Positions 9,789 to 56,845 of a stretch of 64,000 nt of DNA are shown here, piece after piece. The position numbers were made by a program, and so were the translations under genes. The notes below the pieces were generated by a model that searched no databases, was not told where the DNA came from, and saw nothing but the letters and a program-made list of their open reading frames with translations. This DNA comes from Acinetobacter phage vB_AbaM_ME3, in the sequence record KU935715.1; one strand, given 5' to 3'. Positions within the stretch are counted from its first letter, which is position 1, and each line of letters begins with the position of its first letter.

Positions 9789-10232
9789 TCAGGCAATAAT
9801 CCGTTCAATAGTATCTCTTAAGTTTATTTCAACATCAGGATAAAATTTTCTCATTTCTTGTCTTAATTTATATAATCGTCTTTTTGGATTAATACTTAAA
9901 CCATATTTATAATAAATACTATTATTAATTTTTATTTCAAATTCGTATAAAAAGATAGTTTCTAAAGGTCTACGTTGAACTGTAGTTTTATTTAAAAATC
10001 CACTTTGGTTATTTCTAGAGCATGTAGGACAATTACTTCTAGATTGTAAATAGTCATTAGTGCGTGGTGTCCATGTGTTAGAACATTTTTTGCATTCTAA
10101 TTTTATAAATTTAGCATACTCTTGATAACTTCTAGTTAATAAAATGTATAAATCATCTTGGATAACTTTAGAAAGAATTGTAGAATATTTTAATAAATTA
10201 TAAAAATTAGATTTTTGAACTAATGCGTACAT
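9789..10232 (-). CDS. T5orf172/GIY-YIG-like domain protein with Zn ribbon
   Basis: CKKCSNTW...CPTCSRN Cys pairs; YYKYGLSINPKRRLYKL resembles the T5orf172 (MUG113) GIY-YIG-like motif. Confidence 0.45.
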   Translation of the reverse strand: MYALVQKSNFYNLLKYSTILSKVIQDDLYILLTRSYQEYAKFIKLECKKCSNTWTPRTNDYLQSRSNCPTCSRNNQSGFLNKTTVQRRPLETIFLYEFEIKINNSIYYKYGLSINPKRRLYKLRQEMRKFYPDVEINLRDTIERIIA

Positions 10233-10630
10233 GAACTAACTCCCTTAACAAAATCATGAAATAAGGGAAAATAAATATTACCACATGTCTTATGAACTAG
10301 AGCTAATGATATTTTAGTAGTAATTTTAGATAAATCTTGATAGATATATTCATACTCTGAAAAAGTTGTATCAATATAAAGTTTTAAATCCTTTTCTGAT
10401 TTAAAACGTCTTGATTTTTCATTACAAACGCCTGACGTAAGTTTACAATCATTACAGAATTTAGGCTTATTATAAATCAAATTAAACCAATTACTTATAA
10501 CTTCTTTTTGACAAGTATTACAAATTACTAGTATTTTAGATTTGACATTTTTATAAGGTTCTACTTCTCTAATAAATGAAAAACAATTTTCACTTTGAAT
10601 AATCATTTTATATTTTTGAATTTGAAACAA
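10220..10630 (-). CDS. hypothetical Cys-rich (Zn-ribbon) protein
   Basis: CNTCQKE...CNDCK...CNEK...C motifs. Confidence 0.5.
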   Translation of the reverse strand: MFQIQKYKMIIQSENCFSFIREVEPYKNVKSKILVICNTCQKEVISNWFNLIYNKPKFCNDCKLTSGVCNEKSRRFKSEKDLKLYIDTTFSEYEYIYQDLSKITTKISLALVHKTCGNIYFPLFHDFVKGVSSCTH

Positions 10631-11453
10631 ATCTACTCCTCTATATTTCTATAGATGTTGAGACTATATCTTCATCCTATTAAATAGGAGTTTTATGTTT
10701 CCCTTTAATCCGTTCGGAACCACTTGGCGGTAGACCTAAATTTAATTTAGGAATTACTAGTCGTTGAACCTTCCTCTATATTACTAGAGGCTTGGCTGCT
10801 GATTGTCCATTACAAAGAATATATTAATATATTCATCTTCTTTATTTTCAAACATTCACGCTCATCTTTACAGATCACGTTGTAGTTAAAGAAGCTTTAG
10901 GAGTTTCCAGCAATTAATAAAATTTTGTCGACTACATTACTGTAGAAGGTGTCAATCTATTATTTAACACTACTGAAGAAAGCGCTCATATTGACGTGTG
11001 ACACCGTCATAATTGTTAACAAGAGTTTCTTTAATTATCTCTTTTCATTTCCTATCTAAAGTTTGGAAATAGTTCAGACTATCTAATCACCTTCAACAAC
11101 AAATATTTGCTTTGTTAAGGTGTTGGGCGCTCGTGGAGAGGTTATTGTTATCTTACTCACTCTCTAGTCGTTTAACGTTCTTGTCTCTTAATTAAGATAA
11201 GACAAGCTTCGCACAGTGTCGCCTACTAAGCTTCCACTGTTAGCTACAATATATAAATATAATAATGATACAGACTATTGGAATCTAACCAATTCATCCT
11301 AAGTTTACAAAGATGTTTCCCAACATTCTAAGCTCTTGGGGCGTTCACCTTTCACCAAGTCTGCATTACGAATTATCTCGGATTGGTAGGCCTTATGGGA
11401 TTCTAACCCATGATCTCACAAGTTATGAGCTTGGTGCTTTAGAACGCTAAGCT

Positions 11454-11540
11454 AAAGGCCTGTAATACCGAAAGAATTGGCATCGCCTGGAGGAATCGAA
11501 CCTCTCACGTCCTTCCTGCTTTTTACGTACCAGCTTAGAA
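11454..11540 (-). ncRNA. tRNA-like element: T-arm, an anticodon-like hairpin with loop CUUCUAA (UCU), encoded CCA, but no recognisable D-arm
   Basis: Minus-strand GAGG-TTCGATT-CCTC T-arm; CCAGC-CTTCTAA-GCTGG hairpin; ends ...AGGCGATGCCA. Confidence 0.35.
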
Positions 11541-11666
11541 GGCTGGTGCAGGGGCAAGCGACACAGATGATTAATTTCATTTTGTAAATTTATATAAGTA
11601 ACACCCTCTTTTGATCGAGGTTCACCCAATTATTCGATTACCATTTCTGATAAAAGCCACTCACAT

Positions 11667-12101
11667 TTAATGGATATCCATAACTACAACTAAATCTGGA
11701 CTTGAATAAATCTCAGGAGTATTAGTATAGTTAATGGTTGCTGCGCTTACTTCTTGTTTAGGTACATGAATGAAGAAATCTTTTTTAATTTTATCCCAAA
11801 CAATAGCACAATAGACTTCAGATTTAATTGTCTTACTAATATTACGATAAAGAACAATTACTTGTTGTAATAATCCAGTAGGAATTTTTGGAATTTCAGA
11901 ATGATCAGGAGTAAAAGAAGTTTCACATTCTTTTGTCAAACCTAAAGCTTTGAAATCTTTTAATTCAGTAGGGATTACAAATGTACCAATAGGAGACTTA
12001 CGTTGCTGAAAAATACCATTAGCAAAGATTGCATTATGGATATTCTTACCTGATTCTGTATCAAATTTTTCAACAGCAAAAGAGTTAAATAAATCAAACA
12101 T
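11667..12101 (-). CDS. hypothetical protein
   Basis: ORF track; tiled. Confidence 0.5.
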   Translation of the reverse strand: MFDLFNSFAVEKFDTESGKNIHNAIFANGIFQQRKSPIGTFVIPTELKDFKALGLTKECETSFTPDHSEIPKIPTGLLQQVIVLYRNISKTIKSEVYCAIVWDKIKKDFFIHVPKQEVSAATINYTNTPEIYSSPDLVVVMDIH

Positions 12102-12985
12102 TAGAAGTGTCTCCCAATATTAATAGCACCATCGCCACCATTAGGTTCAAAAATATCATCAAATTTGTAACCTAATACTGAACAGAAATAGTAAAGAGTA
12201 AAGATATTATGATACCAATCATGTTCACGCTCTGTAATAGAACGAATAAAGTAATTGATTGAATCTTCACTTTCTGCTAATACTTCTGTTAAAAATTCTT
12301 TAAAACCTTCACGATTTGAATTAACAAAAGAAGTTTTAACTTGATTACGAATACGTAAATCAGAGTTAAAATTAGAATTTAAGTAAGCATGAATAGTAGA
12401 TACTTGTTTATAACTATCTTTTGCTTTTAATAAATCACGATCAAAACTTCCATGCCAACAAACATTGTGATCAAAGTGATTACACAACATAGAAAGAAGT
12501 TGAGAATCATTACTTGGCATATTAATAATGTTAGTAGTAATAATTCCGTAGTTATGAGTTACATTACTAAATTCTGAATTATTTGTATTAACGATTAAGG
12601 CGCCATAATTTTTTAATTTAAAATTAGGGAAACGTACAAAATGATTTTCATCGCCATCTTCATCTTCTTCAGTAATATGGCAGATTCCGTATTTATTGCC
12701 TTCTTTGATATTTACACTACCACCAAATTGGAAAGTACCTGTAAAGGTTACTTCAGGAATCATGTATAAACGTTTTACTTGTCCATTCGCTACACATTCA
12801 CGAATTAAATAAGGACTAATAAAACCAGTATCAGCTTCTTTTAAACCATTAACAGAAGCTTTAGTAAAGAGTTCAGGAACAGATGCTACAGGAACACGTT
12901 TAATAACAGATTGACGTCGATCATTAGTTACACTAACCCGTGCATGTGGTTGTGAACTGTCTAACGTTACATTAATAATAGTCAT
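12101..12985 (-). CDS. hypothetical protein (294 aa)
   Basis: ORF track; ATGA junction. Confidence 0.55.
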   Translation of the reverse strand: MTIINVTLDSSQPHARVSVTNDRRQSVIKRVPVASVPELFTKASVNGLKEADTGFISPYLIRECVANGQVKRLYMIPEVTFTGTFQFGGSVNIKEGNKYGICHITEEDEDGDENHFVRFPNFKLKNYGALIVNTNNSEFSNVTHNYGIITTNIINMPSNDSQLLSMLCNHFDHNVCWHGSFDRDLLKAKDSYKQVSTIHAYLNSNFNSDLRIRNQVKTSFVNSNREGFKEFLTEVLAESEDSINYFIRSITEREHDWYHNIFTLYYFCSVLGYKFDDIFEPNGGDGAINIGRHF

Positions 12986-13320
12986 AGATATTTCGATTTA
13001 ATTGTAGGAGTAGAACTTAAGACCATAGTGAATTTACTGATGTAAGCATCCATCATTGATGTATCAGGAGCTTGTCGTCTAGTACGAGAAGATGGAAAAC
13101 GATCAACAATATTTCGAATAGTTCGTTCATCAACATCTGCATATCCATTAAGAATGCTTTCAACAAATTCAGGAATATTTAAATCTGGTCTACGTAATAA
13201 GGAGAGAACGTCAGTAGGAAGTTCTTGTGGGACTGTCCCATCAACTTCATTAGGAAACGTTTCAAATAAGGCTTCATTAATTAACAATTGTATGTACCTC
13301 ACGTCTGCTGAAGTAATCAT
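12982..13320 (-). CDS. hypothetical protein
   Basis: ORF track; overlapping start/stop. Confidence 0.5.
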   Translation of the reverse strand: MITSADVRYIQLLINEALFETFPNEVDGTVPQELPTDVLSLLRRPDLNIPEFVESILNGYADVDERTIRNIVDRFPSSRTRRQAPDTSMMDAYISKFTMVLSSTPTIKSKYL

Positions 13321-13717
13321 TTTCTCTTACAATACGACTTAAACGTTCTAGAGAATTTCCACGTCTTAATGATACAGGAACACGAGAATCAGAGATGTCT
13401 TTAGTAAGAAGATCTTTAATAACATTAAGTGTCATTGTTAAATGAGATTTCACTGTCAGTTTATTAGGAGGAGAACAATCATACAGATCTTTCATCACGC
13501 TATAAATAAAAGGACTATATGATAGATACATATACATAGTAGCTACAGTATCAATATCAGAATAAGGGATATCAAAAGCAGCTAAGGTTTCTTGAAGGGG
13601 ATTTTCACTAGTTCTATGTGTATTTAAATGATGTTCAAAAGTAGAAGCTTGTCTACTATTAAAACGAGTAAATATTGTAGCTAGTAAATATTTTTCAAAC
13701 GATTTATCAATAATCAT
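13277..13717 (-). CDS. hypothetical protein
   Basis: ORF track. Confidence 0.5.
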   Translation of the reverse strand: MIIDKSFEKYLLATIFTRFNSRQASTFEHHLNTHRTSENPLQETLAAFDIPYSDIDTVATMYMYLSYSPFIYSVMKDLYDCSPPNKLTVKSHLTMTLNVIKDLLTKDISDSRVPVSLRRGNSLERLSRIVRENDYFSRREVHTIVN

Positions 13718-45076: not shown

Positions 45077-46522
45077 TTACTCTTTAACTAATGCATAACG
45101 ATCTACTAATAGCGTTTCTTTCATAATAGCTTCAGGTGAAAACTCATCTAAAGTATTAGAACAAACTGCTTTTAATAGAGAAGGAGAAAAGCTAGATAAT
45201 AAACAAGCACCTGATTCATCATATTTAACAGGAAAGTTATTATTAGAAGGAGTGTTAAGAACCCAAAAGATTAATTTAGGACATTTTAATCCTGCTTCTT
45301 TAAACTTAACTTGAGCATCAACATATGCTGAGCTTTCACGAGAATTAAAATTAAACTGAGTGTCACTGAAGAAAACTAAATATTCAGGTAATTGATCTGA
45401 AGAAATATTATTAGAAACTACTAGATCTAATAGTAGTTTAAAGACACCTTCAACATTTGTACTATAACCAACTTGACTTTGAGCAATAAGATCATAACGC
45501 TCTTTTAAAGTTTTACAATCTTTGAGATCAACAAAAGAAGGATGATCTGCAAATGTAGTTACAAGGTTTTTAAATGGACCTTCAATACGTTCACTGATGT
45601 AAGCACCTAAAGTAATTGCAATATGTTTATATGTTGCATTACCTACAGCAGGAGCTTCCATTGAACCACTTAAATCAACTACAGGAAGAATCGATAAACC
45701 TTCTTTAATTAAATTAGGAAAGCTATTCCACTGAGCTTCTACAACAGGATTAGGTTCGAAATAAGGAGAATAACGAGACCCTAATATTGAATAAACTTCA
45801 GAAATTTCATGAAGAAATAATGTAGACGAATTTAAAGTTGCAGTTCCCTCACTCACTTTATTAATAAAATCATTAAAACGATCTGAGTCTTTAGACAAGA
45901 ATGTATTTTTATAACGATTAAAAGCTTTAGAAGGAACTGTACTATAATCTATTTCAGCGATACGATGCTCACACAATAAACGTTCAGTAACTTTAGCTCG
46001 TAAAGGGACAATTAACTGTCTTAATTCTTTAGGAGTGACCTTAAGATAAGAACGTAACATAGATGCAACATTGCCTTTCAAAGGTAACCACTTTGCAACT
46101 AATATCTGAGTTTCAGGATTTTTCAAATGTTCAGCTAATAGTCGAATAATCTTTTTCTTAATACGAAGATCAACATCACATTCTACTAAATTAAATAAAT
46201 CAGGATAATACCCTAACTCTACAATTTTAGATAAAAGATTAGTTTTTAAAAATACATCAATATCTATATGAGCTAAATGAATCATACAGAGATTAAATGA
46301 ATTACGAATACCTTTACCTTGTCTAATATCACGAGAATTCAAAAGATTACGAATTGCTAAATCTTTGTCTTCTAGATAAGCTTTTCGAAAATCTAAAATA
46401 GCTTCTTGAGAATAGTTAGGATCACCTAATTTAACAAAGAAATCTAAATTATGAGAAGCAGTACTAGAATAAGCTACTGCCCCATTAGTGGTTTGTGTTT
46501 TTAAAGCTGTTGCTGCAAACAT
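45077..46522 (-). CDS. vWA-domain protein, possibly a Ro60/TROVE-like RNA-binding protein
   Basis: C-terminal-half MIDAS-like motif VVDLSGSMEAP; 481 aa with a long N-terminal domain, matching the Ro60 TROVE+vWA layout. Confidence 0.4.
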   Translation of the reverse strand: MFAATALKTQTTNGAVAYSSTASHNLDFFVKLGDPNYSQEAILDFRKAYLEDKDLAIRNLLNSRDIRQGKGIRNSFNLCMIHLAHIDIDVFLKTNLLSKIVELGYYPDLFNLVECDVDLRIKKKIIRLLAEHLKNPETQILVAKWLPLKGNVASMLRSYLKVTPKELRQLIVPLRAKVTERLLCEHRIAEIDYSTVPSKAFNRYKNTFLSKDSDRFNDFINKVSEGTATLNSSTLFLHEISEVYSILGSRYSPYFEPNPVVEAQWNSFPNLIKEGLSILPVVDLSGSMEAPAVGNATYKHIAITLGAYISERIEGPFKNLVTTFADHPSFVDLKDCKTLKERYDLIAQSQVGYSTNVEGVFKLLLDLVVSNNISSDQLPEYLVFFSDTQFNFNSRESSAYVDAQVKFKEAGLKCPKLIFWVLNTPSNNNFPVKYDESGACLLSSFSPSLLKAVCSNTLDEFSPEAIMKETLLVDRYALVKE

Positions 46523-46537
46523 TATGTTATTACCTAA

Positions 46538-46978
46538 TTATCGAATACGTTTATGAAAAGATATAAAATCAGGATCATCTATAAAACGTTTAAACATTTT
46601 TAGATTATATTCTGAAAAAGGAGAAGAGGAAGGGTTGGTTAATTGTTCAGGAGTTACATACTCTACCTTAGCTCCTTCTTTATTCACAAAAGGAAGTTTT
46701 GGTAAGTCTTTAACAACACCATCATATACATAAGTTAATGTATCATACTCACCATCCCAATCTTGGAATAGAAACATTAATTTTGTAGGATCTAACTCAA
46801 TACCTACTTCTTCACGAACTTCACGAACAAGTCCTTGAATTAATGTTTCTTCTTCCTCTGCCTTACCACCTGGAAGTCCTAATAAATTATGATTGTCTTT
46901 ACGTGATACTGATAACACCTTAGAACCAGTTTCTGGATCAGGGTAGAGTAAGAGTATAGCTTGTTTTAAATCTTTCAT
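46538..46978 (-). CDS. Nudix hydrolase
   Basis: Nudix box GGKAEEEETLIQGLVREVREEVGIEL. Confidence 0.75.
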   Translation of the reverse strand: MKDLKQAILLLYPDPETGSKVLSVSRKDNHNLLGLPGGKAEEEETLIQGLVREVREEVGIELDPTKLMFLFQDWDGEYDTLTYVYDGVVKDLPKLPFVNKEGAKVEYVTPEQLTNPSSSPFSEYNLKMFKRFIDDPDFISFHKRIR

Positions 46979-46996
46979 TACGAGCTTCCTATAAGC

Positions 46997-48097
46997 TTAG
47001 AGAGCATATGCTGATTGGTTTGTTAAAAAACTTTTATACATTGGTTGAATAAGGAATTTAAGTCCTTGATGAATAATTGTAATTTCACGTGTCATTGGAT
47101 TTTGACTAATTTCACTATTCATGTGAGTAATATATACATCAAATGCTTGATCACCTAATTCTTCATCAGTTGAGTATGGGTTCCATTCATTACGATGTTT
47201 ATTTAAAAACTCTAATAAACATGAAGAATTAGCTACAAAATCAGCAGGATCATATTCAGAATTAGTATTAAGATTAAACGCTCGAATATTAAATTCAATA
47301 GTGTCATTATTCAATTGAGTTTTAATATTAAGAATTTCAGTTAAACTTGCAATTGACTCTTCAGGATACTGATTCATTTCTTTAATTAATACAGATAACA
47401 TATCAATATTAAATTTAGAGAACTTTCCTACAAATTCCAATACTTCACTAGTACGTGATTGATCTTCTAAGTTATCTTTCATGTACTCTTTAAGTAGTTC
47501 AATATCTAATGATTTGAACTCAATATTAAAATAAACACGACCAGGACGATTGCTAAAGTACTCTAAATGGTGACCATATAAAGTTGTATTAGCAGTCATT
47601 AAGAATAAAGTATGTTGAGGCCATGTACCATCTAATAAGCTTAACATAGAATTACGAGGTTCAGCTTCCATGTATACTTTTTCAAATTCATCAATCACTA
47701 CAATTTTATCTTGAGTAATACTTTGAAGGAATTGATTAAATGTAGAACCAGCATAAGGTTGATCAACAATTAAGACAATTCCTTGATGAGATTCTACAAA
47801 GTTAATACAAATACGTTTAAGTAATAAGCTCTTACCACTTCCTTTTTCACCTACAAAGGCAGCAGATGTAGCTTTGTCTTGACGTTCAAAGTATGTATCT
47901 AAGATACGACCAGCCCAACGATCTGATTTTCCATATACTTTATGGTAAATAGTAAAAGGATTTGTAGGGCTTAAGAAGAATTGTTTAACTTGGTCATCCC
48001 ATTGAACAGAATAATAACCAGCTGGAATAACAGGTACAATAAACTTTGCTAGATTTTCAGCAACATAATAACCATTAGGTTTATTTAAATAAGACAT
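46997..48097 (-). CDS. P-loop NTPase (366 aa)
   Basis: Walker A GEKGSGKSLL; Walker B-like VVIDEFEK. Confidence 0.6.
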   Translation of the reverse strand: MSYLNKPNGYYVAENLAKFIVPVIPAGYYSVQWDDQVKQFFLSPTNPFTIYHKVYGKSDRWAGRILDTYFERQDKATSAAFVGEKGSGKSLLLKRICINFVESHQGIVLIVDQPYAGSTFNQFLQSITQDKIVVIDEFEKVYMEAEPRNSMLSLLDGTWPQHTLFLMTANTTLYGHHLEYFSNRPGRVYFNIEFKSLDIELLKEYMKDNLEDQSRTSEVLEFVGKFSKFNIDMLSVLIKEMNQYPEESIASLTEILNIKTQLNNDTIEFNIRAFNLNTNSEYDPADFVANSSCLLEFLNKHRNEWNPYSTDEELGDQAFDVYITHMNSEISQNPMTREITIIHQGLKFLIQPMYKSFLTNQSAYAL

Positions 48098-48597
48098 TAT
48101 AAAAGTCCTTGTCTGATTTCATTTCGAATTTGCATTAATACTTCACCAAGAAGATTACGACCATTCCATTGAGAAGGATCTGTAGCTCTTGGATCATCTT
48201 CTTCTAAACCAACGCCCCAAATCTTATCATTAGGATTACATTCAACTAAGGTTAGTTCTTTAGTTGCTAATAAGTAGTCACGATACTTAGGAATAGTATA
48301 TTTTTGACGATTAATTTCTAGCATATAGTTATAACGAACTTGTTCCCAAGATGCATCATTATAATTAGATACTTTACGACCGAGTTGCTTAGCTTGGATT
48401 GGCTGTAACTGAGTATTTTCTAAAAGCTTCATTGTAGCTTTATCATTAAAATGAAGAGCTTTAGCATACATAAAAGCATTTTCTGTATATAAAAATGTAA
48501 CACCTTTATATTCAAAACCAGCAAAAGCAAAATTACTAAATGGGCCTCTTAAAAAGAGTAAGTAATTATCTTTAATTGTACATTGAGGAATATTCAT
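48097..48597 (-). CDS. NADAR/YbiA (DUF1768) domain protein
   Basis: FLRGPFSNFAFAGFEYKGVTFLYTENAFMYAKA is typical of NADAR/RibX-like N-glycosidase/ADP-ribose-processing enzymes. Confidence 0.65.
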   Translation of the reverse strand: MNIPQCTIKDNYLLFLRGPFSNFAFAGFEYKGVTFLYTENAFMYAKALHFNDKATMKLLENTQLQPIQAKQLGRKVSNYNDASWEQVRYNYMLEINRQKYTIPKYRDYLLATKELTLVECNPNDKIWGVGLEEDDPRATDPSQWNGRNLLGEVLMQIRNEIRQGLL

Positions 48598-48971
48598 TAC
48601 ATTATCCTAGGATTAATAATTTGAAGATATACAGCATTTTTATTAGGACCATTACTAAACTTAAAGTAAGAGTCAGAATTGGGTAAGAGCATTATTAAAT
48701 CATTGTAAACTTGCTTAGTGAAAATAAAAGTAATACCTTCATTTTCAATTAAGATGTTTTCAAAGTTACTGGGATCTTTACTCCCAAAAGCTAGTGCAAA
48801 AAGATCAGAATAACCAATTTGAGGAATAAAAGTAACAACTTCTAATTCAGGAGCTTTCCTATAAACTGAGAAGAAATTTTTCCACATTCGAAGTGTATTC
48901 TGATGAATATTTCCAGGATGTATTCGAATCTCAGGTACATAAAATTTATTTAACTTTGGCATGTTAAGCAT
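48597..48971 (-). CDS. tandem-array family member (divergent), contains KLNKF
   Basis: ORF track; N-terminal PKLNKF motif as in the downstream array. Confidence 0.45.
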   Translation of the reverse strand: MLNMPKLNKFYVPEIRIHPGNIHQNTLRMWKNFFSVYRKAPELEVVTFIPQIGYSDLFALAFGSKDPSNFENILIENEGITFIFTKQVYNDLIMLLPNSDSYFKFSNGPNKNAVYLQIINPRIM

Positions 48972-49242
48972 TAACTGTTAATTCAAATGTAATCACACTT
49001 GGTTCTGATAAAAATATTAAGCCTGTAGCATTTGAAGTTAATATAAAATATGAATCAGCTCTTGATAACTTATTATTTATATTCTCACGCATAGTGGCAC
49101 TGAATCCAAATACTAACCCATTGGACTCAATAAAGAGCATATCTTGAGATGTATAATGTTCTTTATCTCTAGGTAATACTCTTACTATGTATAATCCTTG
49201 TACGAATATGTTCGATATCATATACATAGAGAAAATCAACAT
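48964..49242 (-). CDS. hypothetical protein inside the array region (divergent)
   Basis: ORF track. Confidence 0.4.
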   Translation of the reverse strand: MLIFSMYMISNIFVQGLYIVRVLPRDKEHYTSQDMLFIESNGLVFGFSATMRENINNKLSRADSYFILTSNATGLIFLSEPSVITFELTVNA

Positions 49243-49344
49243 TATCTCTAGAATTTAAAAAAGTTCTATACGAATCTGCTGTTTCCTGAATGATATGTCC
49301 ACCTACAATATTACATGGACTTACATTAAATTTTAAAAGGGGTT

Positions 49345-49686
49345 TCATCTTTCTTTAAACTCAAATCTGGAGTTTTGAGAATTATAATCCAGAACAAAAT
49401 CTAGTCCTCTAAATTTAGAAAATATTGACTGAATTACATAGAATACATTGTTATCAATATAGAAGGACTTCAGATTAGTTTTAAATATAATCTTTAATGA
49501 ATTTTCAGTTGGTATATAAACAGGTGAAACTAATACAGATTGATTTGAAAGCTGAGATATTAAAAATTTAGAAACACCAGCTTCTCTATAAAGGGCTAAA
49601 GCTGCTTTAGCTGAATCAGATATATATAGTGAGTACTGAGATAAGTCAACAAATTGATTAAGTTTATTCATGAGGTTTGCAATCAA
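49345..49686 (-). CDS. tandem-array family member
   Basis: MNKLNQF N-terminus; ~113 aa. Confidence 0.5.
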   Translation of the reverse strand: MIANLMNKLNQFVDLSQYSLYISDSAKAALALYREAGVSKFLISQLSNQSVLVSPVYIPTENSLKIIFKTNLKSFYIDNNVFYVIQSIFSKFRGLDFVLDYNSQNSRFEFKER

Positions 49687-50011
49687 TAATTTTATAAGGT
49701 TCTTTAAAATCTATTAAAGGTAATAATCCATATCTAATGCTTTTAGGTCCAAATACATAATCTGTTTCAAATGATTTACGCATAACTTGACCATCTATAT
49801 AAATAATGCATTGATTGATTTTAAACCATACAGAATCTTTTAAATCATATTTTGAAGGAGGAACTCGATAGAATCCTAAACAATCCTCAGCGTATGTACT
49901 ATCACTAATATAGACACTTTTATAGATATCCTTTATTTTTAATAATCTACTATACATATCTAAACACATTCGTATAGAATGATTTATCTTAAACCGAGAT
50001 AAAGTGTTCAT
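49664..50011 (-). CDS. tandem-array family member
   Basis: LSRFKINHSIRM N-terminus; ~115 aa. Confidence 0.5.
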   Translation of the reverse strand: MNTLSRFKINHSIRMCLDMYSRLLKIKDIYKSVYISDSTYAEDCLGFYRVPPSKYDLKDSVWFKINQCIIYIDGQVMRKSFETDYVFGPKSIRYGLLPLIDFKEPYKIIDCKPHE

Positions 50012-50013
50012 AA

Positions 50014-50355
50014 TTATAAGACCTCAACGTCAATATATGCTGATGATGGGTTATCAATCATACGAAATGAATAACTAGCAAAAGAGTCTCTAAGCATAAC
50101 ATGCCCAGAGATAAAGAAATCAGTTAAGTCCCCACTAATTGAAACAATTTGTTGATTACTCAATCGTATTTTTATCTCATTATATGATTCATATAAGGCA
50201 GGTTTGATTCCACCTAAATGTACCTGATCGATCCCTTTTGAATAACGAGCAATATGTAGATGACCAAATTTTCCTGTATACTTAATAAGCTCCTCTACAC
50301 AACTTGAGTGTACTTTTATAGTAGTTAATTTTTTAAATTTAAGAAGAGTTGCCAT
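50014..50355 (-). CDS. tandem-array family member
   Basis: MATLLKFKKLTTIKV...VSISGDLTDFF. Confidence 0.55.
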   Translation of the reverse strand: MATLLKFKKLTTIKVHSSCVEELIKYTGKFGHLHIARYSKGIDQVHLGGIKPALYESYNEIKIRLSNQQIVSISGDLTDFFISGHVMLRDSFASYSFRMIDNPSSAYIDVEVL

Positions 50356-50702
50356 TAAATCACATCCACTGGTAAATACTCATTATTTATATTAAAAGGA
50401 ACAGCACAATAAGACAACAATGAACTTCCAAGTTGTTTCTCTAAACAAAAACCATTTGATAGTAAATGAGCTATATCACCACTTATATAAATAGGACAAT
50501 TAATACCTATTCTAATTGCAAAAGAGCCTTCATCAATAAACTGTTTTGGTTTTATTGTCTGCAACAGATTTGCTGAAATATGTTCACTAATTTTGCTAAT
50601 ATATAATCTCATTTGGTATTTAGAATAAATTCGTAAATCATTAAAACAATCTTGACTTAATTTTATAGTTGTTGGAAGTTTAAATTTATTCAATTTTTGC
50701 AT
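50355..50702 (-). CDS. tandem-array family member
   Basis: MQKLNKFKLPTTIKL...IYISGDIAHLL. Confidence 0.55.
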   Translation of the reverse strand: MQKLNKFKLPTTIKLSQDCFNDLRIYSKYQMRLYISKISEHISANLLQTIKPKQFIDEGSFAIRIGINCPIYISGDIAHLLSNGFCLEKQLGSSLLSYCAVPFNINNEYLPVDVI

Positions 50703-50718
50703 ATTAATCCTTTATATA

Positions 50719-51042
50719 TTAAGTAATCACTTCATCTAATGTTTTATAAAGGATATTTGATTCTTCTTTTTTACAAAATAATCCTTCTCCAGGAATTCGA
50801 TAAATTACCTTTTGAAGATCATAGTCTTTCTCAACTAAAATAGTAAGATAACCGTCACTATATATATTCATATTATTAATAACAGATTGAGCACAATGAC
50901 GTTTATAATAAACATGAAGTCGTGATCTACGTGTAGTATCTAAAGTTAATACAATAGAATCATTAACTCCTGATAATAATTCATATAGTTCATATTCTAA
51001 TTTTAAACCTTGAAAAGACTTAAACTTTTGTAAACTATTCAT
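50719..51042 (-). CDS. tandem-array family member
   Basis: MNSLQKFKSF... Confidence 0.55.
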   Translation of the reverse strand: MNSLQKFKSFQGLKLEYELYELLSGVNDSIVLTLDTTRRSRLHVYYKRHCAQSVINNMNIYSDGYLTILVEKDYDLQKVIYRIPGEGLFCKKEESNILYKTLDEVIT

Positions 51043-51406
51043 ATACTTCTATAAACTCTTCTTCTCGTATATCTCTAATAATACATCCTCTACCTGGATA
51101 TTCATCATATTTACGAGACATAACTTTGCTATCATTTTGAAGTAATTTAACTATGTCACCTGACATATGTAAGGTACAATTATTTTTAAAAGGAATTTTT
51201 AAAGAATCTTCTTCACAGTAATTCCTGTTGGTTTGAGTATAAAAACTAATAGCTTCTTTAAACTCAGGAACATCTTCTCTAGACATGTATTGTATATAGA
51301 TATTTTTATAAGTTCTTGAATGTTCTAATACACTGTTATAGACATCTTTAGTAAATTTAATAGAAGGTGGTAATTTGAATTTAGATAGTTTCATATTGAT
51401 CCTCAA
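51035..51406 (-). CDS. tandem-array family member
   Basis: KLSKFKLPPSIKF...LHMSGDIVKLL. Confidence 0.55.
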   Translation of the reverse strand: MRINMKLSKFKLPPSIKFTKDVYNSVLEHSRTYKNIYIQYMSREDVPEFKEAISFYTQTNRNYCEEDSLKIPFKNNCTLHMSGDIVKLLQNDSKVMSRKYDEYPGRGCIIRDIREEEFIEVYE

Positions 51407-51740
51407 GATTTATTTCAATTACTTCATCTAAGTCACTTAAGTCATCAATTGAACTAATTATATAATCACCTGTAACTCCTCTAGCCATACATGCATTAGA
51501 GTTCAATTTATCTATAATGCTTCCGCATATAACTAAAGTATTATTTTGAAAAAGTTTAATTATACCTTTTGTATCTAATTGCATTCGTTTCCGAGGTATG
51601 GAATACAAAGAAAATTCATCTCGATCAAACCAGCAAGCATACATAATATTATGAGCTTTAGAATAGTTTATAAAGGTATCATAGAGGTCTTTAGTTATTT
51701 TTATAGATTTTGTATCTATAAATTTTTGTAATTTATTCAT
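51381..51740 (-). CDS. tandem-array family member
   Basis: MNKLQKFIDTKSIKI...VICGSIIDKL. Confidence 0.55.
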   Translation of the reverse strand: MNKLQKFIDTKSIKITKDLYDTFINYSKAHNIMYACWFDRDEFSLYSIPRKRMQLDTKGIIKLFQNNTLVICGSIIDKLNSNACMARGVTGDYIISSIDDLSDLDEVIEINLEDQYETI

Positions 51741-52071
51741 AATATATTTCTATTAATTCATCTTGAGATACTAATTCTTTATCAATTATTTCATACACAT
51801 TTTTAGATATTCTAGATAAACATACAGACTCATTTAATTGTTGAGCAACTGTACCACATATAAATAATAAAAAGTTATTTTCAAATCTTAAACATATATC
51901 ATTTACAGCTTGATAATTTGGAAGAGCTTTACTATACAGCACAATAGTACTACTACCTTGCTGTTGTATAACTAGTACCTTCTGCATAGCAAAATTATGA
52001 GAGAGATCAAGTGCTACTCTATGTGTTATGAATACACTTTTACGAATTTTAAATTTACTCAATTGCATCAT
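51733..52071 (-). CDS. tandem-array family member
   Basis: MMQLSKFKIRKSVFI...FICGTVAQQL...ELIEIYYE. Confidence 0.55.
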   Translation of the reverse strand: MMQLSKFKIRKSVFITHRVALDLSHNFAMQKVLVIQQQGSSTIVLYSKALPNYQAVNDICLRFENNFLLFICGTVAQQLNESVCLSRISKNVYEIIDKELVSQDELIEIYYE

Positions 52072-52375
52072 AACAGTCTATTTCTATAACTTCTTCAAAA
52101 GTACTATTAAGAAAAACATAAACCCCTGGTTCTTTTCTATATAAATATTTTCCTTCTTCTATATCTAAACTATTTAAATAGAAGCGGGTTTGATCTATAT
52201 AGAAAATTACATATCTATCTAAAGAAAATTTTTTTGGACGACGAGTTCCTAAATATAATCCTTCATCATTAGAATAAAAATAAAAATCTCTTGAATTAAA
52301 TTTAGTCAAAAATTGGTAAAAAGAATGTGTAATTAATAGGGTAGTTTTAATTTTAAAAGACTTAAGAAAAGCCAT
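52055..52375 (-). CDS. tandem-array family member
   Basis: MAFLKSFKIKTTLLI...EEVIEID. Confidence 0.55.
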   Translation of the reverse strand: MAFLKSFKIKTTLLITHSFYQFLTKFNSRDFYFYSNDEGLYLGTRRPKKFSLDRYVIFYIDQTRFYLNSLDIEEGKYLYRKEPGVYVFLNSTFEEVIEIDCYDAIE

Positions 52376-52685
52376 AAATTTCTATCTCCATAATTTCTTC
52401 GTCTACATTATGAAGAAATTGATAATCAGCAGCACCTAATCTATGTAAAATTTTTCCTTGAAGAATACTTTCAAAATGTTCGGGATTTAATAACATATTA
52501 GAAGTTCCAATTCTAAATCTAATATAATTTATTCTTGAAACAGGTCGAATCATTTGAAGTCGCATACCACTATCACGATTGTTAACAAAAGTTAAAGGAC
52601 TTAACTCTATATCATTTATAAATTTATATGTTGACTTCGATATACGTATTACAGAAATTGTTTTGAATTTATTAAGCTTCTTCAT
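52362..52685 (-). CDS. tandem-array family member (start trimmed to the internal MKKLNKFKT)
   Basis: Track ORF 52362..52772 carries a 29-aa out-of-family N-terminal extension that overlaps the upstream paralog by 100 nt; the internal Met gives a family-typical ~107 aa. Confidence 0.5.
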   Translation of the reverse strand: MKKLNKFKTISVIRISKSTYKFINDIELSPLTFVNNRDSGMRLQMIRPVSRINYIRFRIGTSNMLLNPEHFESILQGKILHRLGAADYQFLHNVDEEIMEIEIYGFS

Positions 52686-53013
52686 CAATGATTTCAAAAC
52701 TCCTAAAAGGTATATCAGTTTTAATAAACTTAGATACAATTCCATCCTTAACCAAAGCAGTACCTTCTTCAATACTATTTAAATGCCTTCTTGTTATATA
52801 GCATTTAATATTATCAATATAAAAATGTACATAAGGTCCTAAATCATAATGCCTTGCTAGATACATAACCCAACGATCAGCATCCATATGATAATATGTA
52901 AGGACAATCTCAGTTTCTTCATATCCTTCAAGATGATGTTTTAGTTCAGTAATCAAACTATCTGTTATGTTAATAACTTTAGAAAAAGTTTTAAACTTAT
53001 TAAATTTTTTCAT
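52672..53013 (-). CDS. tandem-array family member
   Basis: MKKFNKFKTFSKVINI... Confidence 0.55.
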   Translation of the reverse strand: MKKFNKFKTFSKVINITDSLITELKHHLEGYEETEIVLTYYHMDADRWVMYLARHYDLGPYVHFYIDNIKCYITRRHLNSIEEGTALVKDGIVSKFIKTDIPFRSFEIIDEEA

Positions 53014-53575
53014 CTTCTATATCCTGATGATATTTTTCGATAATGTCATCTAAAGAAAATACTTTGTGTTCTACGTCAAGACCAACATCATATTGGAACT
53101 TCTTACGATCTTTATAAGTACCGTGACAATGACCAAATAAATTAATTGATCCTCGATGAGACTGATCCCAAGAACCTAATGGATAATGACTCATAGTAAT
53201 ACGAGTAGTTAAAGAATCTGAAATTTTAACATCTCTTAAACAGAAGTAATGATTTATATATTTATGAGGATTTAGTTTATAGACTTGTTGAAAAGCTTGC
53301 ATAATCATATTAGCAAATTTTTCATCATGATTACCTAAAGCGATATAAACCAAAACACCCTTATCTTTAAAATATGTAAAGAACTTAATAAACTCTTGCA
53401 ACTTAATCCTAAAATTACAAGAGATATCTCCTAATAAGTAGAGAATATCTCCTGATTTTAAATGATCAAATTTAGACATGATCCATTGATTATGCTCTTC
53501 TTCAGTACATGGACGATTACAATATTTAATGATATTTTTGTGCGACAGGTGCAAATCCGATGAGAAATGGATCAT
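53000..53575 (-). CDS. calcineurin-like metallophosphoesterase (Ser/Thr phosphatase-like)
   Basis: SSDLHLSH, LYLLGDISCNF, IALGNHDE. Confidence 0.7.
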   Translation of the reverse strand: MIHFSSDLHLSHKNIIKYCNRPCTEEEHNQWIMSKFDHLKSGDILYLLGDISCNFRIKLQEFIKFFTYFKDKGVLVYIALGNHDEKFANMIMQAFQQVYKLNPHKYINHYFCLRDVKISDSLTTRITMSHYPLGSWDQSHRGSINLFGHCHGTYKDRKKFQYDVGLDVEHKVFSLDDIIEKYHQDIEDEKI

Positions 53576-53584
53576 TTTTTTAAA

Positions 53585-53899
53585 TCACTCTTCTTCAATT
53601 TCTAAATCTAGGGATGGAGTATCTCCACGAGAATCACTTCCAAATAATGATTCAATAGTTTTAGCTTCTTCGTCTGTTAATTCTTTAATTTTGAGAGTAC
53701 TGAATACATCATCATAATTACGATAATAGATTTCTTCATTAGTACCAACCCAATGAATAAGGGGCTCACCACCATTTTTAAAATATTTTTCAATATCTTT
53801 TAAATAATTGTCAAGCCAATCTTTATCACAAATAGTCCATCCGTAGATGTCCATTTCATCAGCCCAGTTATCATTAACTTGTACTAACACTTGGGTCAT
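53585..53899 (-). CDS. acidic hypothetical protein
   Basis: ORF track. Confidence 0.5.
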   Translation of the reverse strand: MTQVLVQVNDNWADEMDIYGWTICDKDWLDNYLKDIEKYFKNGGEPLIHWVGTNEEIYYRNYDDVFSTLKIKELTDEEAKTIESLFGSDSRGDTPSLDLEIEEE

Positions 53900-53902
53900 T
53901 TA

Positions 53903-54223
53903 TTACACTCCTAAACGTTCTTTAAGAACAGCTAAAGGAGCCATACCACGAACAGTATTAGTAACTACACCATTTTCATAAACTAACATAGTAGGTACGG
54001 TAGTAATATTTAATTCTTTAGCTAAATTTTGTAAATCGTCTGTTTCAGGAGTCAAAGAAAAGAAAGACACACCTTCTGTTTCTTGTGAAAGTTTATTAAA
54101 TAAAGGAGCTAAAGCTTTACATGGAGCACAAGTACTTGTACTAATTTTAACAATACTTTTTTGTGTATTTGTAAGCACATCAGATTTATATTGTTCTGAT
54201 GATTGAATTTCAATAATTGACAT
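53903..54223 (-). CDS. thioredoxin
   Basis: CxxC active site STCAPCK in a ~106-aa thioredoxin-sized protein. Confidence 0.7.
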   Translation of the reverse strand: MSIIEIQSSEQYKSDVLTNTQKSIVKISTSTCAPCKALAPLFNKLSQETEGVSFFSLTPETDDLQNLAKELNITTVPTMLVYENGVVTNTVRGMAPLAVLKERLGV

Positions 54224-54232
54224 ATATTCTTC

Positions 54233-54646
54233 TTATTTTTTATTAACTAATTGTGAAATTGTTTTAGCATCGTATTGAGATACATGGTAATTAGCTTTAA
54301 ACCAGTTCATAACAAATGCAGTTTTATTACCTTTATCTTCAGACCAATTTCCACACACTCTTTCAACAATTTCAATTGTTTTTTCAGGAGATAATGGTTG
54401 AGGTAATAAACTATTTAAAATTTCTAATTCTTCACGTGCAACTTCATTTAAAGGAGAGACACTTAATACTTGTAAAGCTGAATCACGAAACTTTTTTAAA
54501 GTATCTAAAGTAATAGTATTTCTATCTGCTTTTACTTTCTTTTCGGCTTGTTGAACTTCACCTAAAATAGTTGTAAACAGATTTGTATGAACTTTATTCT
54601 TATTTTTACGAGCTTCTAATGATTTTTCAGTAATTGTTTGAAACAT
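54233..54646 (-). CDS. GatB/YqeY-domain protein
   Basis: EELEILNSLLPQPLSPEKTIEIV and the C-terminal FVMNWFKANY...AKTISQLV match the YqeY pattern. Confidence 0.6.
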   Translation of the reverse strand: MFQTITEKSLEARKNKNKVHTNLFTTILGEVQQAEKKVKADRNTITLDTLKKFRDSALQVLSVSPLNEVAREELEILNSLLPQPLSPEKTIEIVERVCGNWSEDKGNKTAFVMNWFKANYHVSQYDAKTISQLVNKK

Positions 54647-54696
54647 TTTATATCCAATAAAAAAGCCTCTACTATAATTTAGTAGAGGCTTTTATT

Positions 54697-55320
54697 TTAA
54701 GTTAAAGGAAGTATAACTGATCTTACAACATCATCTGATCCACGTACAGAGATCTTTAAATTGAAATCATCTATAACACTTAAAGATATATTAGAAGGTA
54801 ATCTAGCAGAATCTACTTTAGTACTCAAACCACTTGTTATTGTGGAATTTAAAGTAGATTCAAGAGTAGATACCTTAGAATCAACATATGGCTTAATAGA
54901 ATGAGGATCTTCTGAAGTTGTATGTTCTTCAATCTTTCTATCTAGTTCCATATCAACATAGTCGACATTATTATTAGAGATTTTGTTTAACATCTCATTT
55001 TGAATATCAACCATATTAACAGTAATAGAGTGGGGATCTAACATAGTAATAGGTAATTGACTAAGAGAGATCATCCCATTAACTAAATCTGCTTTAGTGT
55101 TATTAAGATTTTGAATAGCAGGATTGAATGTATCTCTCACTGCTTGTTCTCTCAAATCTATATACTGTTTTTGACTAATAGATAATGGTTTATCTATATC
55201 ACTAGTATTATCTACTTTATCGAGATCTAAAATTTGAGGAACATCAAGTAGTACCCAATTCTTTAATTTCTGAGTAGTTAGATGATATTTACCACGTCCG
55301 AGCAATAGGTATTTGTTCAA
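54697..55320 (-). CDS. hypothetical Ser/Thr/Asn-rich protein
   Basis: ORF track. Confidence 0.5.
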   Translation of the reverse strand: MNKYLLLGRGKYHLTTQKLKNWVLLDVPQILDLDKVDNTSDIDKPLSISQKQYIDLREQAVRDTFNPAIQNLNNTKADLVNGMISLSQLPITMLDPHSITVNMVDIQNEMLNKISNNNVDYVDMELDRKIEEHTTSEDPHSIKPYVDSKVSTLESTLNSTITSGLSTKVDSARLPSNISLSVIDDFNLKISVRGSDDVVRSVILPLT

Positions 55321-55399
55321 TACCTACTAACTCATGAGGAAATTCTGGTACTTGACTTATTGTTTGCCCAAGATAAGCATCAGCCATTATAATTCTTCC

Positions 55400-56845
55400 T
55401 TATGTTCTTTGTTGAAAACCAAAACCAGTATTTACTAATTCTGTGCTTTCATTTTCACGTCTACCTGCTAATAAAGCAAATAGATTAGCTAAAGTAATAC
55501 GATCTGGAAGACTTTCTTCTAAGTCTAAACGATCACAACGATTTAGTACTTTAACTGCTTGTTCTTTATGCAATGCATCTACATGAATAGCTTTATAGCA
55601 ACGGCCTTCACGTAATAGAGCTTCATCAACATCTGCTAAATTATTTAAGTTAGAAGTAAAGATAACTTTCTTTTCTTTCTTAGCTGTTAATCCATCAGTG
55701 ATGTTAAGAAGTTTTTTCATCACTTCATTACCATCTTTCTGACGACTATTAATATAAGTATCAGCATCTTCAATAATTAAGAATCGTTCATCACTATCAT
55801 AGAAATGAGAGAATAACGAATCCATATTAGCAATATCTTTATTGTATGTGATTAAACAAGATTCATTAGCATAATGTAAAATTTGCTTTAATAAACTTGT
55901 TTTACCAGTACCTGGAGCTCCATACAATAATAACACAGCTGAATCAGATTCTAAATAGCCATTAATAAAATCTTGAAGATTAATATCATTTAAGAAAGGA
56001 TAAGCTTCTTCAATAAAAGTCTTATTACGAGGAATTGGAATAGTTTTAATATTCAAATCACCTGACTGTGTAATACGATCAACCCATTGAACTTCAACTG
56101 TCTTAGGTTTTAATTCTAATAAAGGGTGAAGTTCTTCAGCTAATGTAGTAGGCATGATTGCATTATTAATAAAGTAATCAGCAGGAACCTTATGAGTATG
56201 TTCAATAGATATAAAACCACCATCCATTAAAATCTCATAATGCTTTTGAAGCTTTTCACCATAATGAGTAAATACTGTTAAAGCTTTTGATTTAGCAAAT
56301 TCTAAAATAGCTTCAAATGATGCTTTTGTAATTTCAGTATATGTATAAGTAGATAAAGGAATTCCTTTATCTAAAGAATTTTGTTGAATATTAACTAGGT
56401 ACTGCATACCGAATGAAGCAGTAACAATACTAGGACTTAAATTATTTTGAGAAGTCATTGGAGGGCTCATAGGAATATTATATACAGGTACTTTAGTATA
56501 AGCTGGATTTACATCTGGTGAATGATAATAGTTAGGACCACTTACTGCGTAGACATGCTTGCCTGTATAAGATACTTGAAGATCATATGAATCTCTGGGG
56601 TTAGCATTGTACTGTGGACCAACCCCTGTAAGAGTATTATAAATAGACTTATTAAAACTTGAAGCAGTAATTTGTCTTAAAAAAGTTCTATAATACATAG
56701 ATACGTAACTAATACGATCATATGAATTTAACTCTCCAAACTCATTATTAACAGTTGGAGAAACACCTTCAACAATTTTAAAAGCGTTTCTAAATATAGA
56801 CATTATTTGAAATGGTCTATGTCTTCGAAGAGTTACTCTTGCCAT
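55400..56845 (-). CDS. classic AAA-family ATPase with a ~300-aa N-terminal domain of unknown function (BCS1-like layout)
   Basis: Walker A LLYGAPGTGKTS, Walker B FLIIEDAD, SRH FTSNLNNLADVDEALLREGRCYKAIHV. Confidence 0.75.
   Translation of the reverse strand: MARVTLRRHRPFQIMSIFRNAFKIVEGVSPTVNNEFGELNSYDRISYVSMYYRTFLRQITASSFNKSIYNTLTGVGPQYNANPRDSYDLQVSYTGKHVYAVSGPNYYHSPDVNPAYTKVPVYNIPMSPPMTSQNNLSPSIVTASFGMQYLVNIQQNSLDKGIPLSTYTYTEITKASFEAILEFAKSKALTVFTHYGEKLQKHYEILMDGGFISIEHTHKVPADYFINNAIMPTTLAEELHPLLELKPKTVEVQWVDRITQSGDLNIKTIPIPRNKTFIEEAYPFLNDINLQDFINGYLESDSAVLLLYGAPGTGKTSLLKQILHYANESCLITYNKDIANMDSLFSHFYDSDERFLIIEDADTYINSRQKDGNEVMKKLLNITDGLTAKKEKKVIFTSNLNNLADVDEALLREGRCYKAIHVDALHKEQAVKVLNRCDRLDLEESLPDRITLANLFALLAGRRENESTELVNTGFGFQQRT

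Follow-up and report, generated by a model that had tools for sequence, protein, structure and literature searches.

Introduction

What kind of protein is encoded by thirteen consecutive small genes on the minus strand of Acinetobacter phage vB_AbaM_ME3 (record KU935715.1; positions 48597-53013), and what may so many versions of it do for the phage? In the present study, we examined this array in a 64-kb stretch of the genome, hereafter the window, which covers ~27% of the 234.9 kb of this jumbo myovirus and to whose positions all coordinates refer. The genes, which correspond approximately to gp232-gp244 of ME3, were numbered from W13 on the side of a metallophosphoesterase gene to W01 on the side of a NADAR gene. 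An earlier note, which was made from the letters of the sequence alone, had described the array as a family of small paralogs that arose by tandem amplification and diversification, and had called this typical of host-interaction, anti-defense, or exclusion loci under arms-race selection.

Eleven of the thirteen genes proved to be clear paralogs, and the remaining two, W01 and W02, are probably divergent members of the same family, as judged from sequence profiles and a structural model. Tandem expansions of small genes are already familiar in large phages; the family of the ME3 array itself is previously undescribed. Based on gene organization and the pattern of conservation, we propose a role in host takeover or counter-defense, to which we assign a probability of roughly 40%.

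Results

Organization of the array

The thirteen minus-strand open reading frames (ORFs) with overlapping starts and stops that had been noticed in this stretch were recovered, with sizes of 106-127 amino acids (aa) after start refinement, three starts corrected, and one gene split in the ME3 record. They are given below with their flanking genes and, where it applies, the score against a family hidden Markov model (HMM) or the predicted local distance difference test score (pLDDT) of a structural model; L001, L003, L008, and L009 are related metagenomic loci or contigs.

53000-53575, minus: metallophosphoesterase, calcineurin-like; upstream flank, conserved left border in all related loci.
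52672-53013, minus: W13, 113 aa, MKKFNKFK...; first array gene; HMM 81.9 bits; 66% identical to L001_01.
52362-52685, minus: W12, 107 aa, MKKLNKFK...; start refined from a TTG at 52772; 80% identical to L001_02.
52055-52375, minus: W11, 106 aa, MAFLKSFK...; BLASTP E-value of 1e-10 to W12.
51733-52071, minus: W10, 112 aa, MMQLSKFK...; mid motif FICGTV; HMM 110 bits.
51381-51740, minus: W09, 119 aa, MNKLQKFI...; mid motif VICGSI.
51035-51394, minus: W08, 119 aa, MKLSKFK...; structure modeled, pLDDT 85.5.
50719-51042, minus: W07, 107 aa, MNSLQKFK...; comparatively divergent; HMM 61 bits.
50355-50702, minus: W06 (gp239), 115 aa, MQKLNKFK...; 100% identical to P0002.
50014-50355, minus: W05, 113 aa, MATLLKFK...; BLASTP E-value of 2e-9 to W06.
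49664-50011, minus: W04 (gp241), 115 aa, MNTLSRFK...; P0001.
49345-49671, minus: W03 (gp242), 108 aa, MNKLNQFV...; divergent member, 38 bits; P0023.
48964-49348, minus: W02, 127 aa, MKPLLKFN...; split in the ME3 record, intact in L003, L001, and L009.
48597-48962, minus: W01, 121 aa, MPKLNKFY...; divergent; gp244 in the annotation, where an ATG farther upstream gives 124 aa; pLDDT 85.1.
48097-48597, minus: NADAR-domain protein; downstream flank, borders the array on the right in ME3, L001, and L009 but is missing from L008.
46997-48097, minus: P-loop (AAA / nSTAND_NTPase5-like) ATPase; located after the array in all complete loci.

Adjacent array genes overlap by 1-17 nucleotides (nt) or are spaced by 16 nt or less, and the array overlaps the upstream metallophosphoesterase gene by 14 nt and the downstream NADAR gene by 1 nt; therefore, it reads as one translationally packed operon segment. 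The starts at 52685, 51394, and 49671 are conserved in orthologs, and those given for these three genes in the ORF list were too far upstream. Among the matches to ME3 products, those of W04 to gp241, of W06 to gp239, of W03 to gp242, and of W01 to gp244 are 100% identical. A plus-strand ORF of 67 aa (52579-52782) and the 5' extension of W12 from its TTG (52686-52772, minus) are most likely spurious because the orthologs start at the methionine of MKKLNKFK/MKKFNKFK.

A scan for promoters and terminators found sites within the array to be no more frequent than in shuffled sequences. Upstream, a palindromic hairpin with a 14-base-pair stem (AAAAGCCTCTACTA...TAGTAGAGGCTTTT) lies at 54661-54693 between a 207-aa gene and a YqeY-like gene. 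Since it is flanked by runs of A and T, this hairpin could terminate transcription both ways, and the transcription unit to which the array belongs could begin there.

Membership of the family

The paralogy proposed in the earlier note was supported by pairwise, profile, and HMM comparisons alike. All-against-all BLASTP linked W04, W05, W06, and W08-W12 at E-values of 1e-6 to 1e-12, with weak attachment of W03, W07, and W13, and the paralogs were 15-35% identical to one another. A search of 1.84 billion representative proteins with a profile of 11 members, for which no word index was used, found members at E-values of 5e-31 to 9e-4, and an HMM built from a 29-sequence alignment gave scores of 38-110 bits to W03-W13. 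A scan of every ORF in the window found no additional member of the family outside the array. A regular expression for the N-terminal motif matched 14 ORFs in the window, 12 of which are array genes, and 0-1 in shuffled sequence.

The two outermost genes had been described as the most divergent, and this was indeed the case: neither W01 nor W02 had a pairwise BLAST match to the other members, and their HMM scores were only 2-8 bits. Both carry the N-terminal motif (MPKLNKF... and MKPLLKF...), and their orthologs in L009 match each other with 27% identity over 117 residues. A joint profile of W01 and W02 was collinear with the family profile of 51 sequences (hhalign: probability of 85%, E-value 5.9e-6, 80 columns), with GITFIFTKQVYNDL set against the CTLHMSGDIVKLL motif, and the order of secondary structure elements in the W01 model was the same as that in the W08 model. 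Because of the motif, the hhalign result, and this shared order of elements in a confident model, both were counted as probable members.

Regarding W02, the 92-aa ORF at 48964-49242 in the ME3 record is the 3' part of the 127-aa gene, the start of which (49348) overlaps the stop of W03 (ATGA). The record contains one extra A at ~49201 (cgtAcaagg) relative to metagenomic contig L003, which is otherwise identical across W02; the extra A is also missing in L001 in a three-way alignment, and L009 has an intact ortholog of 118 aa. With the extra base removed, the ratio of nonsynonymous to synonymous substitution rates (dN/dS) was 0.24 against the L001 ortholog. Since ME3 was sequenced with 454 chemistry (PMC5000817) and an otherwise identical contig lacks the insertion, the frameshift is a sequencing error or, alternatively, a lesion of very recent origin. 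A programmed frameshift in W02 was rejected on the same grounds. A -1 frameshift at a slippery site AAATTTA was rejected because its pattern or phase does not fit the array sequences.

Protein features and predicted fold

In the alignment of 51 sequences, the top columns were F (49 of 51), L (47 of 51), the initiator M, and two K (41 and 36 of 51), all of which lie in M-x-x-L-x-K-F-K at the N terminus, hereafter the tag. The common N terminus M-x-KL-x-KFK recognized in the earlier note is present in the 12 array genes matched by the regular expression, and it is there that specific residues are conserved best across the family. Its Leu (TTA, TTG, CTT, CTA, CTC), Lys (AAA, AAG), and Phe (TTT, TTC) codons are mixed, and this use of synonymous codons points to a constraint on the peptide, not on the DNA. 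The other well-conserved columns are all aliphatic or aromatic (I/L/V/Y/F), that is, core positions; polar conservation beyond the tag is weak and comprises preferences for S/T following strand 1, for D/N, for a basic residue behind helix 2, and for Glu in the final strand.

The mid-protein motif that had been proposed as shared (x-I-S/C-G-D-I) stood in approximately 6 of the 13 copies (W04-W06 and W08-W10) and was not family-wide; the Gly of its S-G-D turn reached 51% among the 51 sequences. Acidic C termini were found in most copies, as previously noticed, with a charge of -2 to -6 over the last 15 residues. The tag is basic, with a net charge of +2 to +4 across the first ten residues of most copies, and the overall isoelectric point ranges between 4.9 and 9.6 across the family. 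Mimicry of DNA was rejected because this range is not uniform. A signal peptide or lipoprotein was rejected because the sequences lack a hydrophobic h-region and the tag is not followed by a Cys, and a beta-clamp-binding motif (QL[SD]LF) because the pattern does not fit the array sequences.

Structural prediction, which had been recommended together with a Foldseek search, yielded confident models for W08 and W01 and a weak resemblance to HesB/IscA only. The AlphaFold2 model of W08, which was built from the 29-sequence alignment (predicted template modeling score of 0.78), has the order b1-a1-b2-b3-b4-b5-a2-b6-b7-b8. The N-terminal 8-10 residues were of low confidence in both models (mean pLDDT of 52 for the first 10 residues of W08), and the tag peptide is predicted to be disordered. 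The best match of W08 in the PDB was the Aquifex IscA-type protein 1nwb (E-value 0.047, probability 0.94, template modeling (TM) score 0.48/0.54). In BFVD, an ME3 paralog came first (E-value 6.6e-4), followed by giant-virus IscA-like proteins (TM score ~0.42). HesB/IscA/SufA proteins were the only recurrent fold matches, and they and their Cys-less relative DsrR share with the array proteins the size (~100-125 aa) and, in the models, the order beta-alpha-beta4-alpha-beta2-3; based on these models, the fold is at best remotely HesB/IscA-like.

The earlier note had not recognized the family, and neither did the databases. Scans of the members against Pfam, PHROGs, and PADLOC returned nothing but scattered single-member noise, and no member matched the HesB/IscA family (Fe-S_biosyn, PF01521) in Pfam scans at E-values up to 1-10. 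The sole match of the family profile among PDB sequences was at the chance level (E-value 0.51), with no IscA/SufA chain at E-values up to 10. Literature searches for anti-defense arrays of tandem paralogs or for HesB-like phage proteins found nothing relevant, and the family is unmentioned in the ME3 genome note (PMC5000817) and in a comparative survey of jumbo phages (PMC7824862).

Distribution, copy number, and rates of divergence

An exhaustive profile search of the 1.84 billion proteins found just 22 cluster representatives, the sequences of which match array genes of ME3 or of the syntenic metagenomic loci L001, L007, L008, and L009. Placement on a contig was traced directly for P0015, P0022, P0026, P0008, and P0005; P0003 and P0025 among the 22, and P0006 and P0007 from the first search, are apparent close orthologs by sequence that were not traced to a contig. 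The wider 51-sequence profile found nothing outside the ME3-like clade. Megablast with 46000-56000 and tblastn with W06 gave no match among 50,697 phage records, a collection that apparently lacks the ME3 record, and a search of IMG/VR with the metallophosphoesterase found no related locus. By sequence comparison, the family was shown to be restricted to ME3-like jumbo phages, a handful of relatives.

In every related locus, the array follows a metallophosphoesterase of 191-195 aa, and in every complete locus it is followed by (NADAR)-ATPase-Nudix. As proposed in the earlier note, copy number was compared across these relatives, and it varied at this one syntenic site: 13 genes in ME3, 15 in L001, 17 each in L009, L010, and L011, ~4-5 in L008 (4 intact genes and one copy split by a frameshift), and at least 8 in L007, the contig of which ends within the array. 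Together with the low identity among paralogs, this variation bears out the tandem amplification and subsequent diversification. The broken copy in L008, which is the first of its array (5695-5944) and is divided into ORFs of 30 and 63 aa, is either a decaying gene or an assembly error.

Reciprocal best hits identified a one-to-one L001 ortholog for each of the 13 ME3 genes. L001 has two additional genes between the orthologs of W07 and W06, and because both have relatives in L009, ME3 probably lost them. L009 is without orthologs of W05 and W06 and contains a block duplication at 10970-13457; the identity between B05, B06, and B07 and their counterparts B08, B10, and B11 is 42-47%. These comparisons showed an array that, as read from the sequences, evolves by gene birth and death, its members being duplicated, lost, or disrupted by frameshifts.

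Between ME3 and L001, the array proteins were 50-80% identical and most flanking proteins 88-99%, with the YqeY-like protein (73%) and the adjacent P-loop ATPase (55%) as exceptions. Nei-Gojobori (NG86) estimates of dN/dS for the 13 array pairs were 0.21-0.69 (median ~0.31), and for ten flanking pairs 0.02-0.40 (median ~0.13). By these estimates, array members were shown to diverge 2-3 times faster than their neighbors and yet to be under purifying selection; since all 13 values are below 1, the array genes are real and functional. The rates indicate a constraint that is clearly weaker than that on the neighbors, with evolution that is relaxed or in part diversifying against a background of purifying selection. 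Of the arms-race selection suggested in the earlier note, the rapid divergence relative to the flanks was borne out, whereas positive selection was not demonstrated by values in this range.

Surrounding genes

The ADP-ribose/NAD-related genes (NADAR and Nudix) and the metallophosphoesterase that had been named as flanks were identified by Pfam (NADAR, NUDIX, and Metallophos), and the window also contains thioredoxin, DUF2828/DUF7788, and ATPases, with a CCA-adding-type enzyme (PolyA_pol family) farther along the neighborhood. In L008, a Hen1 and Pnkp pair (AAA_33 / Metallophos / PNKP_ligase; 8864-12524) occupies the site at which ME3 (45077-46522), L001, and L009 have a DUF2828/DUF7788 protein, which looks like a swap of RNA-repair-type modules beside the array. 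The adjacent P-loop ATPase, homologs of which were found in 367 of the 50,697 phage records, is 74% identical between ME3 and L009 and, with a dN/dS of 0.40, 55% between ME3 and L001, against 88-99% for its neighbors; this pattern suggests exchange or accelerated evolution. Judging from its gene content, the neighborhood is accessory and conflict-related in type.

An ORF of 32 aa is located between the gene for a 481-aa AAA ATPase and the 207-aa gene in L001 (5658-5756), L002, L004, L008, and L009-L012 (cf. 55320-55400 of the window). The G+C content of the window is 27-33% throughout (~30% overall), and the genome announcement gives 40% for the whole ME3 genome (PMC5000817).

Discussion

Considering that the globular domain is conserved only in its hydrophobic core and that there are no candidate catalytic or ligand residues, the array proteins are most likely non-enzymatic binders. 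A set of binders or adaptors would be expected to show the pattern seen here, in which the core is conserved, the surfaces are free to vary, and a single linear motif is invariant. Taken together with the accessory, conflict-type neighborhood, this favors the role in host takeover or counter-defense. Each protein consists of three parts, namely, a basic and disordered N-terminal peptide, a compact beta-alpha-beta4-alpha-beta2-3 domain, and a usually acidic C-terminal strand. The globular heads may recognize, through their diversified surfaces, different and probably host-encoded, variable targets, and the shared peptide would serve to dock all of the copies to a single partner, possibly a phage or host machine. 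The proteins may then act alongside the neighboring NADAR, Nudix, and RNA-repair-type accessory genes.

Several points weigh against this role. No homolog with a known function was found in Pfam, PHROGs, PADLOC, PDB sequences, or the 1.84 billion proteins, and the NAD/ADP-ribose and RNA-repair neighbors are circumstantial evidence. Positive selection was not demonstrated at the gene level, with gene-wide dN/dS below 1 in 13 of 13 pairs. The tag is on no other protein in the window, and, therefore, a general sorting signal is not supported there. Furthermore, part of the acidic C terminus and of the tag falls in overlapping frames or in purine-rich Shine-Dalgarno-like runs of the next gene, and some of the conservation may, thus, serve translational coupling.

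A more specific form of the counter-defense proposal, which we regard as possible but doubtful, is that of a binder repertoire on a Cys-less IscA-like scaffold, each copy of which would neutralize a different defense or takeover target, with the common peptide plugging into one machine. This may, for example, be a machine that loads the proteins into the capsid to be co-injected, or else an ATPase or protease that all copies share. If true, such a 'one handle, many heads' modular anti-defense system would be new in both fold and logic.

The internal proteins of T-even phages (IPI, IPII, and IPIII) provide the closest functional analogy, and they also suggest a different explanation, in which the array proteins are packaged into the virion with the tag as a capsid-targeting leader and, having been loaded into the prohead, are ejected with the DNA. 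As in the T4-type loci, which are plastic between relatives, clustered small and highly diverse accessory proteins share a short conserved N-terminal leader; the tag is the best-conserved specific feature of very diverged small proteins, is disordered in the models, and is present even on W01 and W02, the bodies of which barely align. The capsid-targeting leader of T4 is MKTYQEFIAE, to which the basic ME3 tag is unrelated, and no conserved Glu or protease-type cleavage motif was recognizable after the tag. Moreover, T4 internal proteins share the leader alone on unrelated bodies, whereas the array proteins are paralogous over their whole length and of one fold. The array is also distant from the structural genes of ME3 (ME3_13-29; PMC5000817) and lies in a non-structural region with genes of nucleotide and RNA metabolism. 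An anti-restriction role has been described for at least IPI* (PMC3012670). We consider packaging to be unlikely for the ME3 proteins.

Equally improbable, in our view, is that the proteins are accessory subunits or adaptors of the adjacent P-loop ATPase, or of the NADAR/Nudix and RNA-repair genes, with the tag for docking and the variable domain for the selection of substrates. The order metallophosphoesterase-array-(NADAR)-ATPase-Nudix is kept in all complete loci, the genes are translationally packed in one block, and the ATPase itself is unusually fast-evolving, all of which would agree with a joint function. However, tblastn with W06, the one member of the family used as a query, found nothing in the collection in which 367 phage records contain homologs of the ATPase; the ATPase therefore appears to work without the array family, and L008 keeps its array even though NADAR is absent.

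Small non-enzymatic proteins that diverge fast and are encoded in tandem are characteristic of immunity loci, and a role in immunity or superinfection exclusion, in which the copies would be diversified antidotes to polymorphic toxins or to competing phages, would fit both this organization and the variable copy number. Nevertheless, we found no toxin or orphan toxin-tip fragments among the copies and no consistent match to an Imm family (a single Imm64 at an E-value of 0.05 in 1 of 37 members is noise), and an inspection of the sequences revealed none of the signal peptides or transmembrane segments that are expected of an envelope exclusion protein. Such a role accordingly appears quite improbable.

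The resemblance in fold raises the question of whether the proteins are bona fide A-type Fe-S carriers that handle iron-sulfur as HesB/IscA homologs. A-type carriers of this kind have three conserved Cys ligands, one in the middle of the protein and two in a C-terminal C-G-C. No alignment column of the array family has more than 11 Cys among 51 sequences, and W01, W03, and W12 are devoid of Cys; in the absence of the ligand cysteines, this explanation is largely refuted. All fold scores are also borderline, Fe-S_biosyn did not appear in the member-by-member Pfam scans, and 13 or more paralogs of a housekeeping carrier would make no biological sense, which leaves this function very unlikely. 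The artifact that the earlier note had named as its own possible refutation, namely that unrelated AT-rich ORFs are alike by composition, or else a non-coding nature of the sequence, could draw on the AT-rich genome (~30% G+C) and on many pairwise identities of just 15-25%, but it is already refuted and essentially excluded by profile E-values of down to ~1e-31 against 1.84 billion proteins, by orthologs that at least four other phage lineages retain and that, in the comparison with L001, gave dN/dS values below 1, by confident AlphaFold models, and by the motif count of 12 against 0-1 in shuffles.

The proposed role in takeover or counter-defense also has parallels in the lineage-specific expansions of other phages. 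The host-takeover module of SPO1 is one such block of small accessory genes. Bacillus phage G has another in its ~35-copy expansion of a zinc ribbon (PMC7824862). These have in common with the ME3 array that many small genes of the same strand form one block in one lineage, with a presumed role in takeover or conflict; they differ in family and fold, and for the ME3 array, orthology, changes in copy number, and the difference in rate from the flanks have been documented.

ME3-like jumbo phages infect Acinetobacter baumannii, which is a priority pathogen for phage therapy. An array of 4-17 genes that are gained, lost, and diversified among close relatives is a prime candidate for the locus that determines host range or the evasion of defenses in these phages. 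It represents a clean, undescribed family with confident models and one sharply defined and testable element, the N-terminal peptide, the partner of which, once identified, would open a direct path for experiments on what the entire array does.

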